IMG/VR virus record: IMGVR_UViG_2870490042_000002
Source: a virus
Taxonomy: Duplodnaviria > Heunggongvirae > Uroviricota > Caudoviricetes
Reading direction: 5' to 3' (one strand)
DNA: 36,250 nt
The notes below the pieces were generated by a model. The model was not told the origin of the DNA, did not search any database, and saw only the letters and a program-made list of their open reading frames with translations. The position numbers and the translations under genes were made by a program. Shown one piece after another: positions 3,387 to 31,573 of the stretch (positions are counted from its first letter, which is position 1; the number at the start of each line of letters is the position of its first letter).

Positions 3387-3662
3387 ATGAGTATCCGTAT
3401 CGAGATAAATCATCAGTATGTAGTTACAAGCGATCGCTACCAGTTCATTTTGCAGGAAAAGAAAGTGGCGACTGCTGGAAAAAATAAAGGTAGCGAATGG
3501 CTTGATACTGTCGGGTATTACCCGACGATTCAAAAACTGATTTCTGGTCTGGTGCTACATGACCTTTTAAATGGCGGTGCTGATAGTTTTGCGGCGTTGG
3601 GTGAGCAGGTCGAGCAGTTGGGACTGCAATGTCAGACCGCGTTTTGTGCTGATGGCCGTTGA
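3387..3662 (+). CDS. Hypothetical early-region protein (91 aa)
   Basis: Strong RBS AGAAGGAGA upstream. 3' end overlaps the start of gene A by 11 nt. Confidence 0.55.
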   Translation: MSIRIEINHQYVVTSDRYQFILQEKKVATAGKNKGSEWLDTVGYYPTIQKLISGLVLHDLLNGGADSFAALGEQVEQLGLQCQTAFCADGR

Positions 3663-5943
3663 GACTCGGGGGCGTATTGCCCCCTCGCTAGCCCTGCCAA
3701 TATCTAAGCGCACCGGCGATACTTTCGTTGGTGCTTATCCCTGGAATGCTCCCCGCGCTGCCATTGGCCGTGACAGACCCCTTACACGTGCCGAATTCCG
3801 TCAGGTGCAAGGTGTTTTATACCGGATTGACCGCCTGCCTTTCTTTCTTAAGACGTTGTTTACTTCCCGTTATAACTTCATTCGTCGCACAAAGAGCCCG
3901 CTCGGGGCGCTCTATTTCCTGAAAAACACCTTTGAGCGGAAGCTGTTGCCGCGTCTTGAGCGCGTTAACGAGCTGTGCGGGATGAATGAATCTGCGTCGA
4001 TTGGTTTCTTGTCTGAGCGTGACGAATATGCGCGCTTGCCTGATATGAATGACAAAGAGCTGAAAAAATTTGCGGCCAGAATTGCCGCGCAGCTCTGGCG
4101 TAAATACGAGGAACTCAGCGACGAATGGGCTGAGGCATTCGGCGGTAAAGAGACCCTTTTCACCGATGAGGCGCAGGTGCACATATATGGTCAGGTGGCT
4201 GGTGTTGCACGCGCGTTCAACTTAACCCCGCTCTACTGGAAAAAATACCGTAAGGGTCAGATAACGATCCGCATGGCGTTTTCCGCTATTTCCCGTCTGA
4301 TAAAAGATGATTGGTGGGTTAACCAGCTCAAGGCGCAGCGTATGCGCTGGCGCGAGGCGCTGCTTATCGCTGCCGGTGAAGTCAACAAAGACCGTTCACC
4401 TTACGCCAGCAAAATGGCGATCCGCGAGGTTCACTCGCGCCGGCTGGCTAATCTCGAATACCTGAAATCCTGTGAGCTGGAAAACAAAGTTACCGGCGAA
4501 CGTATCGACCTCATCAGTAAAGTCATGGGGAGTATTTCAAACCCTGAAATACGCCGTATGGAGCTGATGAACACCATTGCCGGAATTGAACGCTATGCGG
4601 CCAGCGTTGGTGATGTGGGAATGTTTATCACGCTGACCACGCCGTCGAAGTATCACCCGACCCGACAGGTCGGCAAAGGTGACAGCAAAACGGTGCAGCT
4701 CAATCACGGCTGGAACGAAACCGCATTCACCCCTAAAAACGGCCAGCGCTATCTGTGCCGAATCTGGAGCCTGATGCGTACCGCTTTCAAAGATAACGAT
4801 TTGGAAGTGTATGGGATGCGCGTTGTCGAGCCGCACCACGACGGCACGCCACACTGGCATATGATGCTTTTTTGCAAACTCAGTCAGCGTAAAGCTATCA
4901 ACGAAATTATGCGTCGTTATGCCCTCAAAGAGGACGGACGCGAAAAGGGCGCGGCAAAACAGCGCTTTGAGTCGCGTCACCTTAATCAGGGGGGCGCGGC
5001 GGGTTATATCGCCAAATACATTGCCAAAAATATCGACGGCTACGCGCTTGACGGTCAGCTCGATCACGATACCGGCAAATCTCTGAAAGATACGGCCGCA
5101 GCCGTAACCGCATGGGCGTCTACATGGCGTATCCCTCAGTTTAAACCGATTGGCCTCCCGACAATGGGCGCTTACCGCGAACTGCGTAAGCTGCCGCGCG
5201 GGGTGAGTATCGCCAGCGAGTTTGACGACCGTGTCGAGGCCGTCCGGGCTGCTGCAGATGAGGGGGAATTTGACCTGTACATCAGCGCGCAGGGTGGGGC
5301 AAACATGCAGCGTGATGCTCAGGCGGTCAGGGTCGCCCGTAAGGTGACGGATGAGGTAAACGAATACGAGGAGGATATCGAGAAAGTGGTCGGTATTTAT
5401 GCCCCTCATCTTGGGGTGAGCCGCGTACATGTAACCCGTACAGCGGAATGGCGCATAGTTCCAAAGGTTTTGGCCGTTGAGCCTTTGACCTTAAAAAGCG
5501 GCTTTGCCGCGCCTCGGAGTCCTGTCAATAACTGTGGAAAGCTTGCCGACGGTGGCGATCCAGTTATGACACCTACACCGTCTGAGCAAGCCGCAGCGGT
5601 GTTAAATTTGATTGAGGCCGGGGTTATCGGCTGGAATGAGCCAGACGTCATGAAGGTTCTTAACGGCGCGTTAAAAGCTGGCGCACCTCGCAATAATCGC
5701 CAGCAAAGAAGCAATGCGCCACTCAAAACGAGCGAGCAAGCTCCATCAGCCAGGATGACAAAACCAGAAAGGGATCGCGTGGCGAAAATTCGTTTCGATT
5801 TGGCTCAGGAGGGCATTACCCCGGAACGGTGGGCGCTCGAAGCGCTGGCGCGTGGGGCAACGGTGATTTATGGCGATAAAAAAATCAAATACGCGGCTGC
5901 TGATGAGTGGCCGGGATTCTCAATTCAAGAGGAGCAGAATTAA
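3652..5943 (+). CDS. A: Rolling-circle replication initiator endonuclease, P2 gpA-like (763 aa)
   Basis: ORF 3571..5943 trimmed to MAVETRGR (P2 A starts MAVKASGR as recalled). Long colinear blocks include EPHHDGTPHWHMM and GGAAGYIAKYIAKNIDGY. Confidence 0.9.
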   Translation: MAVETRGRIAPSLALPISKRTGDTFVGAYPWNAPRAAIGRDRPLTRAEFRQVQGVLYRIDRLPFFLKTLFTSRYNFIRRTKSPLGALYFLKNTFERKLLPRLERVNELCGMNESASIGFLSERDEYARLPDMNDKELKKFAARIAAQLWRKYEELSDEWAEAFGGKETLFTDEAQVHIYGQVAGVARAFNLTPLYWKKYRKGQITIRMAFSAISRLIKDDWWVNQLKAQRMRWREALLIAAGEVNKDRSPYASKMAIREVHSRRLANLEYLKSCELENKVTGERIDLISKVMGSISNPEIRRMELMNTIAGIERYAASVGDVGMFITLTTPSKYHPTRQVGKGDSKTVQLNHGWNETAFTPKNGQRYLCRIWSLMRTAFKDNDLEVYGMRVVEPHHDGTPHWHMMLFCKLSQRKAINEIMRRYALKEDGREKGAAKQRFESRHLNQGGAAGYIAKYIAKNIDGYALDGQLDHDTGKSLKDTAAAVTAWASTWRIPQFKPIGLPTMGAYRELRKLPRGVSIASEFDDRVEAVRAAADEGEFDLYISAQGGANMQRDAQAVRVARKVTDEVNEYEEDIEKVVGIYAPHLGVSRVHVTRTAEWRIVPKVLAVEPLTLKSGFAAPRSPVNNCGKLADGGDPVMTPTPSEQAAAVLNLIEAGVIGWNEPDVMKVLNGALKAGAPRNNRQQRSNAPLKTSEQAPSARMTKPERDRVAKIRFDLAQEGITPERWALEALARGATVIYGDKKIKYAAADEWPGFSIQEEQN

Positions 5944-6401
5944 TGAGCAAAATCCATGAGTTAAAAATTGCACCTGAGTATTTTAACTCTGTGATATCTC
6001 AGGAAAAACGTGCTGAATTTCGTCTCAATGACCGCGATTATTCTAGCGGTGATATTCTCGGGTTGCATGAATGGGAACCGGTAAACAGATATACCGGGAA
6101 ACGTGTATCAGTGAGGGTGACAAACGTTACGGATTTATCTGAATGGGCGGAAAATTATGTGATGCTGAGTTTTCAGTTAATGATGCCAGATGTCCAGTGC
6201 GGTATGTCCCTAATGAACTGGAAAGAGTTAAGCGAGAAGGGGCTTGTTTTCAGAGTTAATCACGAAATTCTACACCCGTTAGGGCTGGCTATTAGATATG
6301 AAACACTTAACAGCGTTTCTGGTAGGGCTTACATCGCTGATGATGGTGTCTGGCAATATTCCGACAAGTTGGTCGCAGATGCTAAAAAAATGGGTGGTTA
6401 A
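5943..6401 (+). CDS. DUF3850/ASCH-like (PUA-fold) protein with an about 80-aa C-terminal extension
   Basis: ATG at 5943 overlaps the gene A stop (TAATG). N-terminus MSKIHELKIAPEYFNSVISQEKRAEFRLNDRDYSSGDILGL matches the DUF3850 pattern as recalled. Confidence 0.6.
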   Translation: MSKIHELKIAPEYFNSVISQEKRAEFRLNDRDYSSGDILGLHEWEPVNRYTGKRVSVRVTNVTDLSEWAENYVMLSFQLMMPDVQCGMSLMNWKELSEKGLVFRVNHEILHPLGLAIRYETLNSVSGRAYIADDGVWQYSDKLVADAKKMGG

Positions 6402-6402
6402 A

Positions 6403-6642
6403 ATGAGTCATATGCGAATGATGCCAGTGCCGCCGATACATTCAACGCAAAACATTAAGCTGATGGCCGTCGTACATCGCCTGCAACAAATTATGATTAA
6501 CGAGAATCTGACCCCTGACGAACTGGTCGGGTGTGCCGGTGTCGTCCGGGATAATCACCGCAAATACAGCGATATCAGCAATCCGAAAATTGAGGCGTTT
6601 CGGCCACCAAATATGGCAAAGCCACCACCGCGTCGACCATAG
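6403..6642 (+). CDS. Possible small ORF (79 aa), hypothetical
   Basis: ATG 2 nt after the upstream stop. No recognisable motif and only a weak RBS; could be non-coding packaging sequence. Confidence 0.2.
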   Translation: MSHMRMMPVPPIHSTQNIKLMAVVHRLQQIMINENLTPDELVGCAGVVRDNHRKYSDISNPKIEAFRPPNMAKPPPRRP

Positions 6643-6924
6643 CAAACGCCGCCGGTGCTGAAACTTGTTTTCAGTGCCAGCGGTGTTGAGCAACGAGCCC
6701 CGCGAGACGTTAGCCTGCACCGTAGAGACCACCCCCAACCGGCACGATTAAAGTCGGTTTTATTATGCAATTTTCCCACAATTTCCCGGTTTTTTAGCCG
6801 TGCATGCAACAGGTGCATTTTTTTGCATGCGTTGGGGATGCCTGTTCTGGCCGCGCGCCGCCAGAGCAGGCGCGGATCCAGAGTGGTCATGCAACTGCAT
6901 TAAAAACGACCCATAAAGCGGGCA

Positions 6925-6943
6925 GGCGAGGCGGGGTAAGCAT
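6925..6943. other. cos site (19-nt cohesive-end sequence GGCGAGGCGGGGTAAGCAT)
   Basis: 17 of 19 identity to the P2 cohesive end GGCGAGGCGGGGAAAGCAC as recalled. Located on the Q side of the packaging genes. Confidence 0.6.
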
Positions 6944-7014
6944 TGCGCGCGCCTGTCAAAGATATTAAGATTGTCTCAAAATCGATTGATTTTATTGAAC
7001 TAATGGAGCTAGGA

Positions 7015-8571
7015 ATGATTAAGGGTATAGGTCTTCAAAACTTCAGGAGCTTTGTCAACAAAACGTTTATTGATTTAAAACCAATTACAGTATTTGTTGG
7101 TAAGAACAGCAGTGGTAAAAGTTCCCTATTGCGCACATTTCCTTTACTTCGTCAATCTGTAGAAGAAAATACTACTGGCCCAATACTATGGTATGGGAGA
7201 TATGTGGATTTTGGCGATTTTACAGATGTACTTTCCCGAAAGTCTGAAAAAAAAGAAATTACGTTTAGTTTTTCACTCTCAATTCCGCCAGAGGTTTCAC
7301 AAAGATATACATATTATCGTTCTACTGATTTAGCAAAGCAACCAACAGATATTGAAGCAGAGTTAACTGTTTACTCTAAAGATAAAAAAACAAAAACGAA
7401 AACGATTAAGCTTATATTGGCTGATTTAACAATATTTATTTCAATGGATGAGAGTAGTAATGTTAAATTACTCATTGAATCAGATGATAAAACAATAGAG
7501 CGTGATGGGATAATAGCTAAAAATCTTGGGCAGTTCATACCAAATCTAATTTTGAAGGGTAAGGAAGACAGTCCTCCTCCAAGCACATCATTCTATTTGA
7601 GACATTCTAGGCATGACAGGGCGTTAGAATTGTCATTTATTGATTCAGCGGCGAAATATATAAAGAAATATTTCCATACTAAATCTGATATAAATCAAGT
7701 GACAGAGGCATTCAAAAGAATTGGCTTTATACCCAAAGCGTACGCTAGTAAATTAGTTGCTTTTCTATTTAAGGAACAAAAAGTTTTTAGTAGAAACTTT
7801 GAATTTCAACATGATGAAATAATGAATGAGTTATATCCATTTATAATTGGATGGAATATTAATAATCTTATAGATATAATAAATACATCCTTGTCAGATT
7901 CATTCAGAAATGTAAAGTACATAGCTCCACTGCGTGCTACATCAGAAAGATTTTATCGTTTTCAAGATTTACAGGTTAATGAGATAGATCATACTGGTTC
8001 CAATCTTGCAATGCTTTTGAATTCATTAAGACCGGCTGATAAATCAAAATTTGAAGATTGGACAAAGTTAAATTTTGATTTCATTATCAAGGTTGAACAA
8101 AGTGGCTCTCACTTTGCAATTTTAATAAATACCGGTGAAAATAGTGAGAACTATAATGTTAGTGATATGGGGTTTGGTTATTCTCAGGTTTTGCCGATAG
8201 TTACAGCCATTTGGCTTGAGACAGAACGTCGTGCTACCACGGTTAGAAAACCTATAACATTTATCATTGAGCAGCCAGAATTGCATTTACATCCGTCATA
8301 TCAGCATAATTTAGCAAGTATTTTTGCAAAAGTAGTAACTAAAGCAAAAGAAAATAATGTAGATTTGAAGATAATTTTTGAGACACATAGCCAGACCATG
8401 ATTGAAGCACTTGGTGAATATATTGAGGAAAATGAAAGTCTTTCACAGGATGATATTTCAATACTGGTATTTGAAAAAGATGATAAGCAGCAGACTATAG
8501 TTAAGAAATCTTATTTTGACGAGAATGGTTTCCTAAAAAATTGGCCGGTTGGCTTTTTCTCGGGTAAGTAG
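7015..8571 (+). CDS. ABC/OLD-type ATPase (AAA_15/AAA_21-like), AriA-like candidate
   Basis: ORF 6943..8571 trimmed to ATG 7015 (RBS GGAG at 7004-7007; the longer ORF would run through cos). Walker A VFVGKNSSGKSS, Walker B-like FIIEQPELHLHP, H-loop FETHS. AT-rich. Confidence 0.8.
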   Translation: MIKGIGLQNFRSFVNKTFIDLKPITVFVGKNSSGKSSLLRTFPLLRQSVEENTTGPILWYGRYVDFGDFTDVLSRKSEKKEITFSFSLSIPPEVSQRYTYYRSTDLAKQPTDIEAELTVYSKDKKTKTKTIKLILADLTIFISMDESSNVKLLIESDDKTIERDGIIAKNLGQFIPNLILKGKEDSPPPSTSFYLRHSRHDRALELSFIDSAAKYIKKYFHTKSDINQVTEAFKRIGFIPKAYASKLVAFLFKEQKVFSRNFEFQHDEIMNELYPFIIGWNINNLIDIINTSLSDSFRNVKYIAPLRATSERFYRFQDLQVNEIDHTGSNLAMLLNSLRPADKSKFEDWTKLNFDFIIKVEQSGSHFAILINTGENSENYNVSDMGFGYSQVLPIVTAIWLETERRATTVRKPITFIIEQPELHLHPSYQHNLASIFAKVVTKAKENNVDLKIIFETHSQTMIEALGEYIEENESLSQDDISILVFEKDDKQQTIVKKSYFDENGFLKNWPVGFFSGK

Positions 8572-8573
8572 TT

Positions 8574-9686
8574 ATGTTGATTAATATCGAAAATGCGACA
8601 CCTGAGAAGGTGCTAAATAACTCATTTGCCATAGCGGTTGAAAATATACTTCGGGCATTCGCTGAACAAAAACACTTGGTTATAGGGGCAAGGGTTTTTT
8701 TTAAAACTATTATCAATGATCAAAGCGGGCTTTATAGCCTTTCATCAAAAAGTTACGCGCAAGAGGCTTTGTCGGGTCTAACAGAGTACTATGCTATCTT
8801 GGATCAGGTCTCATTTTATGTATCTGTCGACTTTAATATTAGTGATAAATCATTTAAATGGGTTCAGATCGGTGAATCTTTTAAATTTGTTTGTGGTCCA
8901 TTGTATTTTAATGACTCGGCACAATTGCAAAAAACGAAAATAGTATGTGAAAATCCTTTGGATTCTGATTTTTTTAAGGTTATAGCGGCTCATTATGCCG
9001 AAGGTATTAACTTATCTCGCTGCGAAATGGGTTTTATCGCTCTAAATGGCGGTGGGGGCAGTACTAAGGATATATTCGAGCGTGCAATTCAAAATAATGA
9101 GATAGTTTTTTGTATTGTGGATAATGACAAAAAACATCCTGGAGCCCCATTCGGAGGTACTTGCTCACATTTTTTGGGCTCACAAATTACTCGCTCAGGT
9201 TTCGTGGAGATTTTAGATGTACATGAAATAGAATCTCTAGTTCCTTTATCGACAATTGAAGATGTATTAAGAAGTCAAAGTCAATTGCAACAAAAAGAAA
9301 AATCTCTCATTTTCTTTAAGCATCTTTGCTCCGTAGATGAATCAGTAAAATTTTATATTGACCATAAAAAAGGTTTTGATTTTAAAACAGCCCTTGAACT
9401 CGATCGAAAACATGGTGCATATTGGCGTCCGATATTAAAGAAGCTTGATATAAAATATGATTGTGAGTATATCGAATCAAAACGTTGTAGCTGCAACGCT
9501 GCTTGTGTAAGTTATGATGGTTTTGGAGAGAATTTGCTCAGCAATACATTGAAATATATACAAAAGGGAAGTTTAAAAAAATATAATCCTCACCTAACAC
9601 CAGTGCTTTCTGATAAATGGTATAAGTTAGGTAAGAATTTCTTTAGTTGGAGTTGTGGTCCATATAAAAAAGCAAGGGTTGGTTAA
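8574..9686 (+). CDS. Partner protein of the ATPase (370 aa), possible Toprim/DUF4435-like nuclease (AriB-like), unconfirmed
   Basis: Starts 2 nt after the ATPase stop, so co-operonic. Contains hydrophobic-E (AIAVEN) and a DxD-type motif (IVFCIVDNDKKH). No HNH or other clear fold recognised by eye. Confidence 0.7.
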   Translation: MLINIENATPEKVLNNSFAIAVENILRAFAEQKHLVIGARVFFKTIINDQSGLYSLSSKSYAQEALSGLTEYYAILDQVSFYVSVDFNISDKSFKWVQIGESFKFVCGPLYFNDSAQLQKTKIVCENPLDSDFFKVIAAHYAEGINLSRCEMGFIALNGGGGSTKDIFERAIQNNEIVFCIVDNDKKHPGAPFGGTCSHFLGSQITRSGFVEILDVHEIESLVPLSTIEDVLRSQSQLQQKEKSLIFFKHLCSVDESVKFYIDHKKGFDFKTALELDRKHGAYWRPILKKLDIKYDCEYIESKRCSCNAACVSYDGFGENLLSNTLKYIQKGSLKKYNPHLTPVLSDKWYKLGKNFFSWSCGPYKKARVG

Positions 9687-9689
9687 ATT

Positions 9690-9716
9690 ATCACAGCCCC
9701 GATAAAGTGGGCTGTG
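9690..9716. terminator. Bidirectional hairpin between convergent cargo operon and Q
   Basis: Perfect 9-bp inverted repeat TCACAGCCC / GGGCTGTGA with a 9-nt loop, followed by a T-rich tract. Confidence 0.5.
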
Positions 9717-9781: not shown

Positions 9782-10789
9782 TCAAAGTGAATATTTTTTA
9801 AATCTTATAACTTCCATTTCTAACCAGTTGTTTAGTTCTTTGAACCGTTCCTGTAAAGGAGTTAACTCATTTCGGACAAACACTTGTGCAGCTTTTACAA
9901 CATCACCAAAACCGCCAACATTGTTAGGCATAATTCCCATCATTTGTGGTGGTACCCTATGAGCACTCAACAAATCTTCTGCACTAACCTTTTTGATATT
10001 GAAAAAATCATCTTTCGTGGCGACTTCACTCAACGGCACAATCTTGATGCCATCCGGTTTGCCGTTGGGCGCGTAGAAAAACAAGTTTTTGAAATTCCCG
10101 AGTCCTTTCGAGTCACGCATCGCGTTGCGGAGCGACTCGACGTCGGTACTGCTTTGCGCGGCGTCGGTGACGTACATGATGTACCCCGCGTGCGCGCCGT
10201 TCTGGTAATACTTGCGGCGAAACAGCGTAGCGGACTCATTCAGCCAGGCAGAATTAAGTGCGCTCAGGTATTCCGGCATCCCGTACAACTCCTGATTGAT
10301 ATCGGGCTCAAGCAGATGGAAAACGGAATCGGGTGCGAACGGGTGCGGCTGGGTGTAGTTCGACACGTACCAGTAAACGCCATCTTCGACACCCCGGCGG
10401 GTGTATTTAGCCGGTGAGGTTTCCAGTTTTAAGAGCTGGCCGGTGACGCTCATGCGCTTCTCAAGATAGCCGTTGGCAAAGACCAGATAATCGAGCACCA
10501 GGCGGCTGAAGTCCTGACGTGACAGCAACGGGTGCGGAATGTAGGTGCTCGCCAGAATGTTACGTTTCACGTAAATCGGCGAGCTGTGATGAACGGAGGC
10601 GCGCAGGCTTTTTGCCAGCCCCGAGAAGTTGACCGGCGGCTCGTACCATTTCCCGTTATTGATACACTCTACGTAGTCGAGAATGTCGCGGCGATCCAGA
10701 ACCGGGGAAGGCACACCAAAGGTGAACGCCTCCATTTTTTGCGGTGTGCTGGCGGTCATGTTGGCGGGTTTCTTCTGTCGTTTTTTCAT
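9782..10789 (-). CDS. Q: Portal protein, P2 gpQ-like
   Basis: 335-aa ORF immediately downstream of P on the reverse strand. Position and size match P2 Q. Confidence 0.85.
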   Translation of the reverse strand: MKKRQKKPANMTASTPQKMEAFTFGVPSPVLDRRDILDYVECINNGKWYEPPVNFSGLAKSLRASVHHSSPIYVKRNILASTYIPHPLLSRQDFSRLVLDYLVFANGYLEKRMSVTGQLLKLETSPAKYTRRGVEDGVYWYVSNYTQPHPFAPDSVFHLLEPDINQELYGMPEYLSALNSAWLNESATLFRRKYYQNGAHAGYIMYVTDAAQSSTDVESLRNAMRDSKGLGNFKNLFFYAPNGKPDGIKIVPLSEVATKDDFFNIKKVSAEDLLSAHRVPPQMMGIMPNNVGGFGDVVKAAQVFVRNELTPLQERFKELNNWLEMEVIRFKKYSL

Positions 10790-10790
10790 C

Positions 10791-12560
10791 TTAGTTAATA
10801 TCCAGAATTGAGGTTGATTGCATGCCGCTACCGGCGGAAAGCGGTTCGTTTAACAGGGCGTGCATGGTCGCCCACGCAATATCCGCGTGGCTGGCCTCTT
10901 CGCTGCGGCTGGCCTCATAGGTGGAGCTGCGCCCGCTGCTGGTCATGGTTTTACGGATAGCCATAAATGACTGTGTGATGTCGGTCGCACCGGCGTCATA
11001 TTCCAGACATCCGCGACGGATGGTGTCTTTCGCTTTCAGCACCATCGCAGTTTTCATTTCCGGCGTGTAGCGAATGGCACGCGCCGCCGGGAAGAAGGAG
11101 CGCACGAGCTGGTAAACCCCCTGGCCGATGCCGGTCGCATCGATGCCGATGTACTCGACGCAATATTTCCCGGTCAGCTCGCGGATAGCCTCGGCCTGTG
11201 TCGCAAAATCCATCCCTTTCCACTGGTGACGCTCAAGGATGCGGAACTTGCCACCGGGAACCAGTGGTGGAGCCAGTACCGCACAGCCAGCGCTGTCGCC
11301 GGTGTGCGACGGGTCATAGCCAATCCAGACCGGGCGCCAGTTAAACGGACGGTCAGAGAACGGCGCAAAGTCCTCCCATTCTTCCATCGCATCGACCATG
11401 CAGCGCTGTAGCTCCTCGAACGGGAATACCGACGCTTTATCGTCAACAAACTCGCACATGAAGAGGTTGCGAAAATCGTCGGCGCTGTTTTCCTGTTTCA
11501 GCTGATCCAGATTAAACAGGGTGCATCCCCCGGCGAGTGCGTCCTCGATGGTGACAATCTGCCGCCACTGGCCGTCCGGGCACAGCACGCCACCGGCGAG
11601 CGCTTTGTGGCTGATATCGATGTCGACGCGCTCGCTCGCGTTGCTGCGTCCCCGGTTAAACAGTTCACCTGACCAGAACGGATACGCGCCATGTGCCAGC
11701 GTTGAGGGTGTTGAAAAGTAGGTGGTGCGCAGGTGGGACTGCGACGCCATCCCCGAGGCGACTTTGCGCAGCTTCTGAAAGTTGGGGATCCAGAAGATTT
11801 CATCGACATACAGGTCGCCGTTATGGCTCTGCGCAGTGTTTGAGTTTGTCCCGAGAAAAATCAGCTCTGCGCCGTTGTTGCCGATGACAATCGGGTCTCC
11901 TGACAGGTCGACGTCGACCATGCGCGCAAAGGCGATGATGTACTTTCGGAACACGTAAGCCTGCGTCTTACTGGCTGACAAAAATATCTGGTTTTGCCCG
12001 GTCTTAAGCGCACGCAGGAGGGACTCACGCGCAAAGTAGAACGTCGCGCCAATCTGGCGTGATTTGAGGATGTGGCGAATACGGTGCGCGATACCGGCCT
12101 TGTGCCAGTTGAGCTGATACTCAAAGGACTGATCGAAGAAAATCTCTTCCAGCTTTTCGATGGCCTCGTCGCTGAAATAATTGCGTTTCGGCTTTTTGCG
12201 ATCCCCTTTATTGCGGCTCGCAATGTTGGGGTTTAAATCCACTTCATTACCGGTCTGGCCGTAGCGGTTGATGCGTGCGAATCGCTCCATCTGGCGTGAC
12301 AGAAAATCAGCGACCTTGAAGTCATGCGGCGTCAGGTCAGGCTTTGCATAAAGCTGGATCAGGCGCGCCTCGAGCGTCGTTTCCACGCGATTAAGCGGGG
12401 CGGTTTCCTCCCACCCGTCGCGCTGTTTCCAGCTCTGCACGGTCGGGCGCTTTACCTGCAGTGTGTCGGCGATTTGTGGTACGGAAAATCCCTGCCAGAA
12501 CAACAGCCGCGCCTGTCGTCGCGGGTCATGCAAAAGGGAGAGGTCAGTCGAAATGGTCAT
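10791..12560 (-). CDS. P: Terminase large (ATPase) subunit, P2 gpP-like (589 aa)
   Basis: ORF 10791..12590 trimmed to MTISTDLSLLHDPRRQARLLFWQGFSVPQIA, which matches the P2 P N-terminus as recalled and has a GAGG RBS. Confidence 0.9.
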   Translation of the reverse strand: MTISTDLSLLHDPRRQARLLFWQGFSVPQIADTLQVKRPTVQSWKQRDGWEETAPLNRVETTLEARLIQLYAKPDLTPHDFKVADFLSRQMERFARINRYGQTGNEVDLNPNIASRNKGDRKKPKRNYFSDEAIEKLEEIFFDQSFEYQLNWHKAGIAHRIRHILKSRQIGATFYFARESLLRALKTGQNQIFLSASKTQAYVFRKYIIAFARMVDVDLSGDPIVIGNNGAELIFLGTNSNTAQSHNGDLYVDEIFWIPNFQKLRKVASGMASQSHLRTTYFSTPSTLAHGAYPFWSGELFNRGRSNASERVDIDISHKALAGGVLCPDGQWRQIVTIEDALAGGCTLFNLDQLKQENSADDFRNLFMCEFVDDKASVFPFEELQRCMVDAMEEWEDFAPFSDRPFNWRPVWIGYDPSHTGDSAGCAVLAPPLVPGGKFRILERHQWKGMDFATQAEAIRELTGKYCVEYIGIDATGIGQGVYQLVRSFFPAARAIRYTPEMKTAMVLKAKDTIRRGCLEYDAGATDITQSFMAIRKTMTSSGRSSTYEASRSEEASHADIAWATMHALLNEPLSAGSGMQSTSILDIN

Positions 12561-12726
12561 GGTTGCCTCGTACTGGTGAATACGGGGCAAGGCTAAGGAA
12601 ATAGCCGGGCATTATCGCTAACCCCCTGTTGTGTCAGGGGTTGCACTTCCGCAAGCGGTGGCTGATGCGGGGCGGAGTCGGGAAACTACCCCCGAACCGA
12701 AAACCCAATATCAGGACACCTGAACA
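12561..12726. promoter_or_regulatory. Divergent late promoter region (P and O operons) with dyad AACCCCCTG-TTGTGT-CAGGGGTT
   Basis: Intergenic region between divergent P and O. Dyad at 12620-12642 contains GTTGTGTCAG, which recurs upstream of FI. Confidence 0.4.
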
Positions 12727-14712: not shown

Positions 14713-15468
14713 ATGACGAGTCCCGCAGCGCGTCACATGATGCGGGTCTCGGCCTCTGAAACTGCGCGGCGGGCTGCTGCTCCGCTGCGTAATGCAACTG
14801 CCTATGAGCAGATGCTCGTCAAGCTGGCCGCAGACTGTCGCACGTTAAAACAAATCCGCTCCAACGAGCGCAAGGCAGACAAAAAGCGCGAGCTGTTGCC
14901 GTTTTATCTGCCGTGGGTGGGTGGCGTTCTCAGCTCCGGTAAAGGGGCGCAGGATGACATTGTCATGACCGTCATGCTGTGGCGTCTCGATGCGGATGAC
15001 ATCGCCGGTGCGCTGGAGATTGCCCGCTATGCGATGACCTATGGCCTGACCATGCCGACCGGCGGCCACCGGCGCACCACGCCGTATTTGCTGGCCGAAG
15101 AGGTCGCCCTGTCAGCGCAGCGCCTGCTCGATGCGAAACAGCCTGTCGGGCTGCCGCTCCTGCTCGACACCATCGCACTGACCGAACGGGCAGACATGCC
15201 GGATATCGTGCGCGCGAAGCTGCACAAAATTACCGGCTACGTGCTGCGTGAGGCTGGCCGTCTGACTGACGCGCTGACGCACCTGCAGCGTGCGATCCAG
15301 TTAGAGCGGGCTATCGGTGTGAAAAAGGATATTGAACAGCTCGAGCGCGCGCTGAAACCCAAAGCAGAACCTGCACCCAAACAGAATAAACCGCGCACGC
15401 GCAAACCTGCCGCTAAACCGGCGGCACGGCGCGGGCGTCCCCCGAAAGCGGCAAAAGCCGCAGGTTAA
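14713..15468 (+). CDS. M: Terminase endonuclease (small) subunit, P2 gpM-like
   Basis: 251 aa directly after N, with a basic C-terminal tail. Position and size match P2 M. Confidence 0.8.
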   Translation: MTSPAARHMMRVSASETARRAAAPLRNATAYEQMLVKLAADCRTLKQIRSNERKADKKRELLPFYLPWVGGVLSSGKGAQDDIVMTVMLWRLDADDIAGALEIARYAMTYGLTMPTGGHRRTTPYLLAEEVALSAQRLLDAKQPVGLPLLLDTIALTERADMPDIVRAKLHKITGYVLREAGRLTDALTHLQRAIQLERAIGVKKDIEQLERALKPKAEPAPKQNKPRTRKPAAKPAARRGRPPKAAKAAG

Positions 15469-29948: not shown

Positions 29949-30413
29949 ATGTTAATGGGGCTGGGCTTTTTCGTGTTTGAACGGCGCACCCTGCCGCATC
30001 AGTCAATGCAGTATTCGAAGGACTACCGCTGGGTGTCAAATGACCGTATCGGAAAACCCCCGGCTTATCAGTATCTCGGGGAGGGGGAAACCTCGCGTAC
30101 CCTGTCGGGCACGCTTTACCCTGAAATCACCGGCGGGCGTCTGTCACTGATGGCCATCGAACTGATGGCCGATGAGGGGCGCGCATGGCCGCTGATTGAC
30201 GGAACCGGCATGATCCACGGGATGTATGTCATCGATAAAGTGACTCACAACCACACCGAGTTATTCAGCGACGGCGCGGCTAAAAAAATCGAGTTTAGCC
30301 TGTCGCTTAAGCGGGTGGATGAATCCCTCGCGGCCATCTACGGCGACCTGAAAACACAGGCTGATAATCTGGTCACGTCTGCCGGTAACTGGCTCGGGGG
30401 GCTGGCGGGATGA
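29949..30413 (+). CDS. U: Tail protein U
   Basis: 154 aa with RBS GGAGGG; syntenic with P2 U. Confidence 0.85.
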   Translation: MLMGLGFFVFERRTLPHQSMQYSKDYRWVSNDRIGKPPAYQYLGEGETSRTLSGTLYPEITGGRLSLMAIELMADEGRAWPLIDGTGMIHGMYVIDKVTHNHTELFSDGAAKKIEFSLSLKRVDESLAAIYGDLKTQADNLVTSAGNWLGGLAG

Positions 30414-31573
30414 TAACGGGAATGACTATTCAGGCCGGGGCGCGCATTGCTCCTGATTTTATGCTCACGCTCGGTGGCGCAGATATCACACAGAATTTCA
30501 GCGACCGGCTTATCGGGCTGACCATGACCGACAATCGCGGATTCGAGGCTGACCAGCTTGATATCGAGCTCGATGATACCGATGGACTGGTCGAGCTGCC
30601 GCCGCGCGGGGCATCGCTGACCCTGTGGCTGGGCTGGCAGGGCTCGGCGCTGATTAACAAAGGGAGTTTTACGGTTGACGAAATCGAGCACCGGGGCGCG
30701 CCTGACAGGCTGACTATCCGGGGACGCAGTGCGGATTTTCGCGGGACGCTGAACTCGCGCCGCGAGCAGTCATGGCACGACACCACGCTCGGGGTGATTG
30801 TCGAGACTATCGCGCAGCGTAACAAACTGACGGCCAGCGTGGCTGATACCCTGAAAGCTGTTGCTGTGCCGCATATTGACCAGTCTCAGGAATCCGACGC
30901 GGCGTTTTTGTCCCGACTGGCGGATCGCAACGGGGCAACGGTTTCGGTCAAGGCCGGGAAATTGTTATTCCTGAAAGCCGGTAGCGCGATGACGGCCAGT
31001 GGTAAGGCCATCCCGCAAATGACCGTCGAACGCGGCGACGGCGACCGGCATCAGTTTGCCATAGCCGACCGCGAGGCATACTCCGGCGTAACCGCTAAAT
31101 GGCTGCACACCAGAGACCCGAAACCGCAAAAGCAAAAGGTGAAGCTCAAGCGCAAACCCAAAGAGCAGCACCTGCGTGCGCTGCAGCACCCGAAGGTTGC
31201 TAAAACATCGGCAAAGGCTAAAAAGAAGAAGGTGCAGGAAGCGCGGGAAGGTGAGTATATGGCCGGTGAGTCCGACAATGTTCTGGAACTCACGACCATC
31301 TACGCGACAAAGGCGCAGGCCATGCGCGCAGCTCAGGCAAAGTGGGACAGGATACAGCGTGGGGTGGCGGAGTTTTCGATCACGCTCGCCACTGGCCGCG
31401 CTGATTTATTTCCTGAAACGCCGGTGGCAGTGAAAGGCTTTAAGCGCGTTATAGACGAGCAGGCGTGGATAATCAGTCGTGTGGTACACAGCCTCAACGG
31501 GAGCGGCTTCACGACGGGCTTAGAGCTTGAGGTTAAGGTTTCTGATGTGGAGTATGAAAGCGAGGAAGTTTAA
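30410..31573 (+). CDS. D: Tail protein D (387 aa)
   Basis: 387 aa, same as P2 D. Overlaps the U stop. Confidence 0.9.
   Translation: MITGMTIQAGARIAPDFMLTLGGADITQNFSDRLIGLTMTDNRGFEADQLDIELDDTDGLVELPPRGASLTLWLGWQGSALINKGSFTVDEIEHRGAPDRLTIRGRSADFRGTLNSRREQSWHDTTLGVIVETIAQRNKLTASVADTLKAVAVPHIDQSQESDAAFLSRLADRNGATVSVKAGKLLFLKAGSAMTASGKAIPQMTVERGDGDRHQFAIADREAYSGVTAKWLHTRDPKPQKQKVKLKRKPKEQHLRALQHPKVAKTSAKAKKKKVQEAREGEYMAGESDNVLELTTIYATKAQAMRAAQAKWDRIQRGVAEFSITLATGRADLFPETPVAVKGFKRVIDEQAWIISRVVHSLNGSGFTTGLELEVKVSDVEYESEEV

Follow-up and report, generated by a model that had tools for sequence, protein, structure and literature searches.

The interval 6402-6924 of a 36,250-nucleotide stretch of DNA (IMG/VR record IMGVR_UViG_2870490042_000002, hereafter the window) belongs to a P2/186-like prophage of Escherichia coli and stops precisely where the mature phage genome ends on the right, because the cohesive-end motif GGCGNGGCGGGG occurs once, at 6925. 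Chromosomal prophages 100% identical to bases 5900-7100 are present in at least 22 complete E. coli genomes. Besides the replication nuclease, portal and terminase genes listed in Table 1, the window encodes a gpO scaffold and a P2-type capsid protein according to Pfam. In BLAST searches against phage genomes, 6449-6714 matches 'hypothetical protein' genes of P2-like phages (PSP3 gp37 and a gene of SW9), and 6643-6940 matches the right end of phage 186 and its relatives. We consider it very likely that this right end of the prophage comprises four separate features, all read on the plus strand: a small protein gene, a stem-loop element, an intrinsic terminator and the right arm of cos. Most of this is ordinary: the gene is a conserved hypothetical one, and both the terminator and the packaging site are known. 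For these the value of the analysis lies mainly in correct annotation; the only part that may be new is the stem-loop element.

An earlier note, made from the letters alone, had taken the whole interval for a GC-rich, palindrome-rich terminase recognition and packaging region, an interpretation that is borne out in the last quarter of the interval and mistaken in the first half. Its placement upstream of cos is correct, as the cohesive end GGCGAGGCGGGGTAAGCAT begins at 6925, immediately past 6924. The GC content is 52.6% in the interval and 50.5% in the whole window, which puts the interval at the 43rd percentile among 523-nt tiles; it seems GC-rich only by contrast because an island of 33.9% GC adjoins it on the right. 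The palindromes named in the note are all present: CTGAAA (6658-6663) and TTTCAG (6669-6674) lie inside an inverted repeat with 19-nt arms (6645-6663/6669-6687), TGCATGC stands at 6801-6807 and 6824-6830, and CTGGCCGCGCGCC/GGCGCGGATCCAG occupies 6846-6859/6869-6882 with 79% complementarity. As an overall count the enrichment is weak, with 9 perfect stems of at least 6 bp against 5.1 in dinucleotide-shuffled sequence for the whole region (P=0.13), and 8 against 2.6 (P=0.04) for the non-coding part, a count reached by 10% of window tiles; the hairpin at 6645-6687 and the TGCAT repeats are, as single elements, clearly non-random.

Table 1. Features of the interval and its surroundings, with the positions of the TGCAT repeats in related phages.
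Feature	Position	Strand	Basis or remark
gpA replication nuclease	3571-5943		Pfam
Putative Shine-Dalgarno-like GGTGG	6393-6397	+	read from sequence, 5 nt before ATG 6403
Small protein gene, 79 aa	6403-6642	+	phrog_11386, dN/dS, homologues
43-nt hairpin of post-ORF element	6645-6687	+	fold energy, covariation
26-nt near-invariant tail of element	6688-6713	+	alignments
Putative intrinsic terminator, homologue of 186 t95b	6737-6766	+	alignment to 186
Distal block of cos right arm	6799-6831	.	three TGCAT starts 6801, 6814, 6824 (spacing 13, 10 nt)
GC-rich dyad region between cos blocks	6840-6882	.	inverted repeats I2, I6
Proximal block of cos right arm, CATGCAACTGCATTAAAAACGACCCATAAAGCGGGCA	6888-6924	.	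alignment, information content
19-nt cohesive end GGCGAGGCGGGGTAAGCAT (6925-6943) and conserved TGCGCGC(G)	6925-6951	.	P2 match, alignments
Portal	9782-10789	-	Pfam
Large terminase, gpP-type	10791-12590	-	Pfam
Small terminase	14713-15468		Pfam
TGCAT starts, window	6801, 6814, 6824, 6896
TGCAT starts, P2	118, 130, 140, 212
TGCAT starts, 186	136, 149, 159, 231
TGCAT starts, P4	602, 615, 625, 697

Structure, conservation and context of the stem-loop element

The stem-loop element, of which the earlier note names only the CTGAAA/TTTCAG palindrome, occurs once in the window and consists of a hairpin followed directly by a conserved tail. The hairpin is closed by pairing of AAC (6645-6647) with GTT (6685-6687), which adjoins a 1x1 mismatch and a stem of ~15 bp, and its loop reads CUUGU (6664-6668), loops among the copies being 4-5 nt long. 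As RNA it has a minimum free energy of -29.5 kcal/mol (z=-5.3). The tail has the consensus GAACAACGAGC-N4-GCGAGGCGTTAG, from which the window departs at 6690 (A>G) and 6707 (G>A).

Covariation supports the fold. When 41 distinct copies were aligned with MAFFT, 97.3% of cells pair and double changes occur in 5 pairs; none of 500 shuffles reaches the whole-structure measures, except for the double-change cells (3/500), and sliding the partner by 1-3 columns lowers pairing to 28-49%. A covariance model (R1) was built from the element and used to align 70 distinct copies, and in this alignment, which is fitted to the model and leans towards structure, 95.2% of cells pair, 14 of the 17 pairs show double changes, and 81 double-change cells are counted, shuffles giving 18 +/- 4. 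In this alignment the three AAC/GUU pairs are invariant, AAC and GTT pairing in 69-70 of the 70 copies. As a model-independent test, the tail motif alone was scanned in GTDB species representatives. The exact 23 specified tail bases are present in 38 of these, all Enterobacterales (Citrobacter, Enterobacter, Pantoea, Erwinia, Serratia, Kluyvera, Raoultella, Tatumella and others), and directly before the tail 36 of the 38 loci carry an AAC...GTT-closed hairpin of 35-45 nt (mostly 43), in 32 distinct sequences. A P2-type cos lies downstream within the locus sequence in 33 of these 36.

The element also changes more slowly than the adjacent gene, and its pairing favours the plus strand. For distant pairs the p-distance is 0.10 over the element (0.13 in the hairpin, 0.047 in the tail) and 0.47 at the 4-fold sites of the gene ending 2 nt upstream, the element thus changing ~4-5 times more slowly than the latter. 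G.U pairs make up 12% of cells, and standard pairing amounts to 95.2% on the plus strand versus 84.8% on its complement. That the element is a selected structure we regard as well supported. Copies are found in 54 phage records and in 394 of 5426 complete E. coli genomes, and go unannotated in most of the former and nearly all of the latter. A search of the region against Rfam gave only chance-level hairpin matches to miRNA models (E=0.68-9.9, far below gathering scores), and the element appears to be undescribed in the resources searched, a scope that stops short of the original cos deletion study.

With few exceptions the element begins shortly after a stop codon. In all 29 loci of the small gene it starts 0-3 nt after that gene's stop codon; in 186 it stands behind orf97, and PSP3, SW9 and others have two copies ~405 nt apart, in PSP3 one behind tumB (DinI-like) and the other behind gp37. 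Across 93 distinct contexts, a same-strand open reading frame (ORF) of at least 50 codons ends 0-17 nt before the AAC in 86, most commonly 2 nt before it, an ATG falls within 12 nt after the tail in 13, and a 186-type terminator follows in 30, with cos at +209 to +212. The flanks fall into 22 upstream and 34 downstream classes that make 55 combinations, including 10 complete 2x2 squares, and since they are reassorted in this many combinations the element constitutes a mosaic junction.

Two observations concern what lies past the tail in other phages. An ORF family of 85-87 aa starts 2-3 nt after it in many of them (L098, 6311-6568; L063, L142, L148, L123 and L140), with GGGYWLGRTYD as its signature and M..K...YQ(I/V)(V/I)YR...GG.W.FQRPK..GGG(Y/F)WLG(R/K)TYD.VF as its pattern, and is the last gene before cos in several loci. 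Elsewhere (L012, L013, L015, L018, L020, L028 and L031) a LexA-box-like sequence of the CTGT-N8-ACAG type, e.g. TACTGTATGTAAATA..., follows the element by ~25-45 nt, which by analogy with p95 of 186 suggests an SOS-controlled promoter for the next genes.

The small gene, the terminator and cos

The small gene that ends just before the element is, from its pattern of conservation, a real gene under purifying selection, in keeping with the caveat of the earlier note that a gene might lie here. Its 79-aa product matches phrog_11386 (E=1.1e-29, residues 11-70 against profile positions 9-68 of 69) and has homologues in 116 clusters in Enterobacterales, including Escherichia, Salmonella, Enterobacter, Lelliottia, Leclercia, Citrobacter and Edwardsiella, with lengths between 48 and 129 aa (most 63-85). 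Of 29 IMG/VR loci, 26 have the frame intact, variable columns fall 42/35/65 by codon position, and the median ratio of nonsynonymous to synonymous change (dN/dS) is 0.17 by the Nei-Gojobori method (NG86) over 27 distinct sequences, dS exceeding 1 for distant pairs. The family shares a core of the form KLMAVVHRLQQIM(I/V)NENLTP(D/A)ELVGCA..VRDN and a C-terminus PPPRR(P/R), written for the 79-aa gene as KLMAVVHRLQQIMxNENLTPxELVGCAxxVRDN and PPPRRP. An AlphaFold2 (AF2) model places helices at residues 15-33 and 38-58, with a predicted local distance difference test score (pLDDT) of 72.6 overall and >89 in the core, so that the protein is predicted to form a two-helix hairpin. It had no match in Pfam, NCBIfam, PADLOC, PDB sequences or, by Foldseek, in PDB and BFVD.

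A single nucleotide separates the small gene from the stop codon of the DUF3850 gene upstream (6399-6401), right after which it would probably be translated. Two points weigh against the reading of 6403-6642 as a gene. Its start codon is ambiguous, with alternatives at 6412, 6418 and 6421, the first of which was chosen by the Prokaryotic Genome Annotation Pipeline (PGAP) for its coding sequence (CDS) WP_001466249, and in two other IMG/VR loci a stop comes early, after codon 4, a pair of in-frame ATGs lying just downstream. In most loci the gene stands behind gpA and DUF3850; it is also found without DUF3850, and in 186/PSP3-type phages it lies downstream of tum. The records of SEN1, P22H4, S164 and P2-EC67 leave it unannotated. 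The DUF3850/ASCH-like gene itself is entered by PGAP as a frameshifted pseudogene (5943-6406, 464 nt); yet the 152-aa ORF 5943-6401 is uninterrupted and matches phrog_1812 over its full length, and the two readings part at a run of seven A (6384-6390) near the 3' end. At the other end of the small gene, 6625-6642 encodes PPPRRP and the stop (PPPRRR or PPRQR in relatives), 2 nt before the hairpin. Termination can be slowed where a proline-rich C-terminus meets a stop codon, and a link between this end and the adjacent hairpin is pure speculation.

The terminator has a 7-bp stem AACCGGC/GTCGGTT with one G.U pair and a 9-nt loop, followed by TTTTATTAT; the side of its U run reads UUUUAUUAU, and the run is interrupted. 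The 186 record annotates t95b, the terminator of the p95 transcript, at 30436-30463 (GACCGGTACTATTAAAGCCGGTTTTTTT), which aligns with 6737-6764 of the window (AACCGGCACGATTAAAGTCGGTTTTATTAT). In relatives the terminator is cleaner (CCGGC...GCCGG and seven T), and other lineages have, at the same place ~165 nt before the nick, terminators with different loops or a wholly different stem, such as AATCACCCCTTCGGGGGTGATTTTTTTTT in L012. Because different terminators occupy the same place, termination before cos can be argued to be a selected function, and we suppose that the intrinsic terminator of the window would end rightward transcription before cos. Against termination at this site stand a weak fold (-8 kcal/mol, z=-1.5), the broken U run and a consensus scan of the plus strand that did not call a terminator.

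Finally, the region 6799-6951 is cos, homologous by sequence to that of 186, P2 and P4. TGCAT occurs four times against 0.5 expected (P=0.0005); the fourth copy (6896-6900) lies 72 nt after the third, and the top-strand nick, between 6924 and 6925, 24 nt after the fourth. The third-to-fourth spacing of 72 nt is identical in the window, P2, 186 and P4, the spacer sequences being different, and in an IMG/VR scan for this geometry (at least 120 loci) GGCGNGGCGGGG stands exactly 24 nt after the fourth TGCAT in 115 among the 120 matches listed. The last base of the 186, PSP3, SEN1 and EtG records aligns with 6924, and 17 of the 19 bases of GGCGAGGCGGGGTAAGCAT match the P2 cohesive end GGCGAGGCGGGGAAAGCAC (PMC3931495). 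In the information profile of 133 unique phage and satellite sequences, 6801-6831 is high, 6859-6876 moderate and 6888-6951 near maximal, the TGCAT positions in this profile being partly fixed by the way most sequences were selected; unbiased support comes from loci chosen through the small protein and not through a DNA motif, in which the 290 nt ahead of the nick were aligned and universal conservation starts at the block GTGCATGCAACAGGTGCATT.TTTTGCATGCG, whatever lies upstream. Conservation stops at ~6951, where a variable AT-rich island begins.

Between the two blocks, a moderately conserved dyad core CGCCAG-NG-CTGGCGCGG (6859-6875, -66 to -49) overlaps the third palindrome mentioned above. 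Its equivalents are CGCCAGAGCTGGCG in 186 and CCGCGCC...GGCGCGG in P4, with none in P2; in the window a T>A change moves the best dyad to 6840-6855/6856-6871.

Packaging signals are all that P4 has in common with P2, and its possession of the distal TGCAT block indicates that this block belongs to the functional cos, beyond a core of ~55 bp. That core is credited, reportedly, to Ziermann and Calendar in 1990. Passages in PMC3931495, PMC9594776 and PMC9122126 describe a 55-bp cos core that is common to P2 and P4 and required for packaging. The window agrees with the P2-family cos in its cohesive end, in the conserved core shared with P4 and in its position between the gene A side and portal gene Q. 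By analogy with lambda cosB and cosN, terminase would bind the three phased TGCAT repeats, from which a fixed-length spacer would lead to the fourth TGCAT and the nicking region, and staggered cuts by terminase there would leave the 19-nt cohesive end 6925-6943.

The prophage lineage of the window (with L006 and L220) is altered at the near-invariant positions 6690, 6707, 6754, 6762 and 6868. Two of these changes lie in the tail of the element, others give the G.U pair and the broken U run of the terminator, and one is the T>A change in the middle of the cos dyad, each weakening the consensus form of its feature.

Beyond cos, an AT-rich island of 33.9% GC extends over 6952-9700, up to the portal gene. 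It encodes an ATPase (7015-8571; AAA_15/AAA_21/DUF3696) with NsnB and PDC-M55A as best PADLOC matches, and a partner of 370 aa (8574-9686) with no Pfam domain and a weak PADLOC match to PDC-M55B. The pair is thereby a candidate for an anti-phage system of two genes in the cos-Q hotspot of P2.

Role of the element and competing readings of the interval

We propose that the element is a cis-acting stem-loop, made of the AAC/GUU-closed 43-nt hairpin and the single-stranded conserved 26-nt tail, that would act in the rightward transcript as a structure of the 3' untranslated region (3'-UTR) or of the intercistronic RNA, protecting or processing the end of the upstream message. A role at the RNA level is the most likely one, and we favour it because the element always stands in sense orientation behind an ORF and because its G.U pairs favour the plus strand. 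Structures that protect or process 3' ends classically take the form of a stable hairpin directly behind a stop codon. That the closing pairs and the tail are invariant implies that some factor recognises them, the tail then being its recognition sequence, and the element, being conserved, also serves as the junction at which accessory genes are reassorted between phages. Several points weigh against this proposal. The argument for an RNA role consists only of strand asymmetry and the position behind ORFs, and folded plus-strand DNA would tolerate G.T pairs as well. The invariant AAC/GTT, the constant length of 43 nt and the sharp edges of conservation are what would be expected of a DNA site recognised by a protein. 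Furthermore, P2 has no element, so that it is not essential.

The likeliest of the alternatives takes the element to work as DNA, a structure-specific recombination site folded from the plus strand that would mark the ends of accessory cassettes in the manner of integron attC sites or of repetitive extragenic palindromic (REP) sequences with their RAYT transposases, and would drive gene turnover in the hotspot between gpA and cos. The start of the element within 17 nt of a stop codon in 86 of 93 contexts would suit such a site, as would a stem of free sequence framed by the invariant AAC...GTTGAAC, in which GTTGAAC fits the attC R' box (GTTRRRY), the conserved mismatch near the base and the fixed length. 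One gene is flanked by two copies in some phages, combinatorial reassortment of the flanks comes with sharp edges of homology on either side of the element, and a passage of PMC9122126 explicitly calls the mechanism of gene exchange at this hotspot unknown. The four bases before AAC, however, are variable, do not fit the attC R'' box (RYYYAAC) and do not pair with GAAC, and the 26-nt conserved tail past GTT has no counterpart in attC. No dedicated recombinase turned up, none having been searched for; neither an IntI, among the ORFs examined between gpA and cos, nor a RAYT was identified for the element, and no IntI-directed search of these phages was made. Homologous recombination in any conserved 69 bp would equally yield reassorted flanks, and an RNA role is the simpler explanation for an element that is always sense to a transcribed ORF. 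We consider recombination at the DNA level unlikely for these reasons. Quite unlikely, too, is the wider claim that the element is a new kind of structure-specific junction site, its folded plus-strand nucleic acid recognised by a phage or host factor, that delimits gpA-cos cassettes across Enterobacterales and causes the very high gene turnover of the hotspot.

A different RNA-level function is suggested by the 186-type arrangement of the window, in which 6645-6766 would be a 3'-UTR-derived small RNA (sRNA) acting in trans on host or phage mRNAs. Its 5' hairpin, single-stranded tail as seed, and terminator hairpin with U tail match the architecture typical of Hfq-type sRNAs, no part is more conserved than the tail (p=0.047), and the terminator follows at a fixed distance, with cos at +209 to +212, in 30 of 93 contexts. 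In about two thirds of the copies, however, no terminator comes after the tail, in 13 the ATG of another gene lies no more than 12 nt further on, a scan found no promoter-like site, there is no match to an Rfam family, and we identified no target. An sRNA is accordingly improbable, and protection or processing in cis is retained as our preferred reading of the element.

Narrower explanations of the tail and the loop were rejected. A pseudoknot between the loop (CUYGY) and the invariant GCGAG in the tail is plausible in close relatives and is refuted by divergent loops such as CUGGU and AAAUU. A second site for gpA, an HUH nuclease, was considered because the 7-mer CGAGGCG is common to the tail and to the complement of the P2-type ori nick motif at 5509-5526; the ori sequence of 186 differs, yet the tail is invariant in both phage types. 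The stretch at 5509-5526 (+), inside gene A, exactly matches what we take to be the P2-type origin nick motif (GCGCCTCGG/AGTCCTGTC), and the annotated ori of 186 carries GCGCCCTCTCGGAGTTCTGTCAA. Where the 85-aa ORF follows the element, the tail does fit a ribosome-binding region, its GAGG lying ~9 nt before the ATG; the tail is not a mere ribosome-binding site of a downstream gene, as it is still conserved in the 80 of 93 contexts that have no ATG within 12 nt, and the spacing of GAGG does not account for its conservation in the remaining ~85% of contexts. As a sigma-70 promoter (TTGAAC-N17-GTTAGC) it would have a poor -10, and a scan of 5800-7300 found no promoter-like site.

That any ORF within 6643-6924 is a real gene is highly improbable. 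The minus-strand ORF 6555-6890 ('aI protein' of SW9), whose N-terminus matches phrog_17882, is an example; such ORFs have PHROG matches (phrog_17882, E=1e-23; phrog_33524, E=1e-13) and are annotated as CDSs in a few phage records. We ascribe these matches to conservation of the DNA of cos and of the antisense of the real small gene rather than to coding, because a start and an open frame are both kept in only 23/65, 22/65 and 17/64 distinct colinear relatives, about one third, variable sites fall 29/27/32 by phase with no codon periodicity, and PGAP annotates nothing here in E. coli genomes. For 6643-6924, then, the earlier verdict of no convincing gene stands, as it does not for 6403-6642, and both the ORFs overlapping cos and the antisense ORF were rejected. 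CDSs named 'aI protein' or 'hypothetical protein' are drawn over the non-coding cos arm in SW9 (NC_049459, 30713-30883) and several Yersinia phages. The CDSs over cos in several phage records are spurious, and the small gene is missed by some.

Hardly credible, finally, is the view of the earlier note that the whole interval is non-coding packaging DNA with ORFs by chance. In its favour, the last ~125 bp are indeed the conserved cos arm, and relatives do not maintain the ORFs within 6643-6924. Against it stand a dN/dS of 0.17, saturated synonymous sites and 116 homologue clusters for 6403-6642. Left of ~6799 nothing is conserved across P2-like phages as a whole, and other phages have anything from 124 to >3000 nt between the element and cos, so that the element is not a fixed part of cos. 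The conservation pattern already refutes a packaging role for 6403-6766; such a role holds for ~6799-6924, from where the site runs on to ~6951.

Sharply bounded and strongly covarying, the element is found in P2-like prophages of at least 38 Enterobacterales species, with different accessory genes in front of it. It stands at the left boundary of the variable cargo region beside cos, an anti-phage system hotspot, and whether it serves to stabilise or process RNA or as a junction for recombination, it provides a concrete, testable sequence. Model R1 or the tail motif may also serve as a search handle for the boundaries of the hotspot in short contigs.

Comparison with known systems

The element shares with integron attC sites and REP sequences its position after a stop codon, a free stem sequence within a kept structure, conserved motifs at the stem base, a mismatch near the base and reassorted flanking genes. 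Unlike these, it has no RYYYAAC box, carries a conserved 3' tail of 26 nt, keeps a length of 43 nt and occurs in one or two copies per phage. The resemblance is in form only, and membership of either group is not supported. For cos, the comparison with lambda cosB/cosN is likewise one of arrangement, both having short repeated sites on one side of the nick at a fixed distance; there is no sequence similarity, and the repeats of the window are at the right end of the mature genome.

Closer relatives provide closer parallels. PSP3 gp37, Wphi gp92 and the proteins of phrog_11386 occupy the same position between gpA and cos as the 79-aa protein, are 60-75% identical to it in the core and are always followed by the stem-loop element, as in the window; they differ in the ~16 N-terminal residues and in the length of the C-terminal linker. 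Alignment with the right ends of P2 and 186, which the earlier note had proposed as a check, succeeds along the non-coding stretch for 186 and for cos in P2, which shares the TGCAT geometry and has no element. The right end of 186 (30342-30624) is 86% identical over 282 bp, and the two run colinear from the first base behind the stop codon upstream as far as the end of the genome, the upstream gene being orf97 in 186 and the 79-aa gene in the window. Unlike 186, the stretch in the window has neither tum nor the LexA-controlled p95, and its terminator stem differs by the G.U pair and the broken U run. The defence-like island lies on the portal side of cos in the window and on the gpA side in P2 (old/tin). 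The window cohesive end has T at positions 13 and 19, where P2 has A and C, and its central dyad is of the 186/P4 type with the T>A change, P2 having no dyad. The cos of the window shares with those of P2, 186 and P4 the TGCAT geometry, the nick position, a 5' cohesive end of 19 nt, the conserved core and the place between the gpA side and the portal gene.

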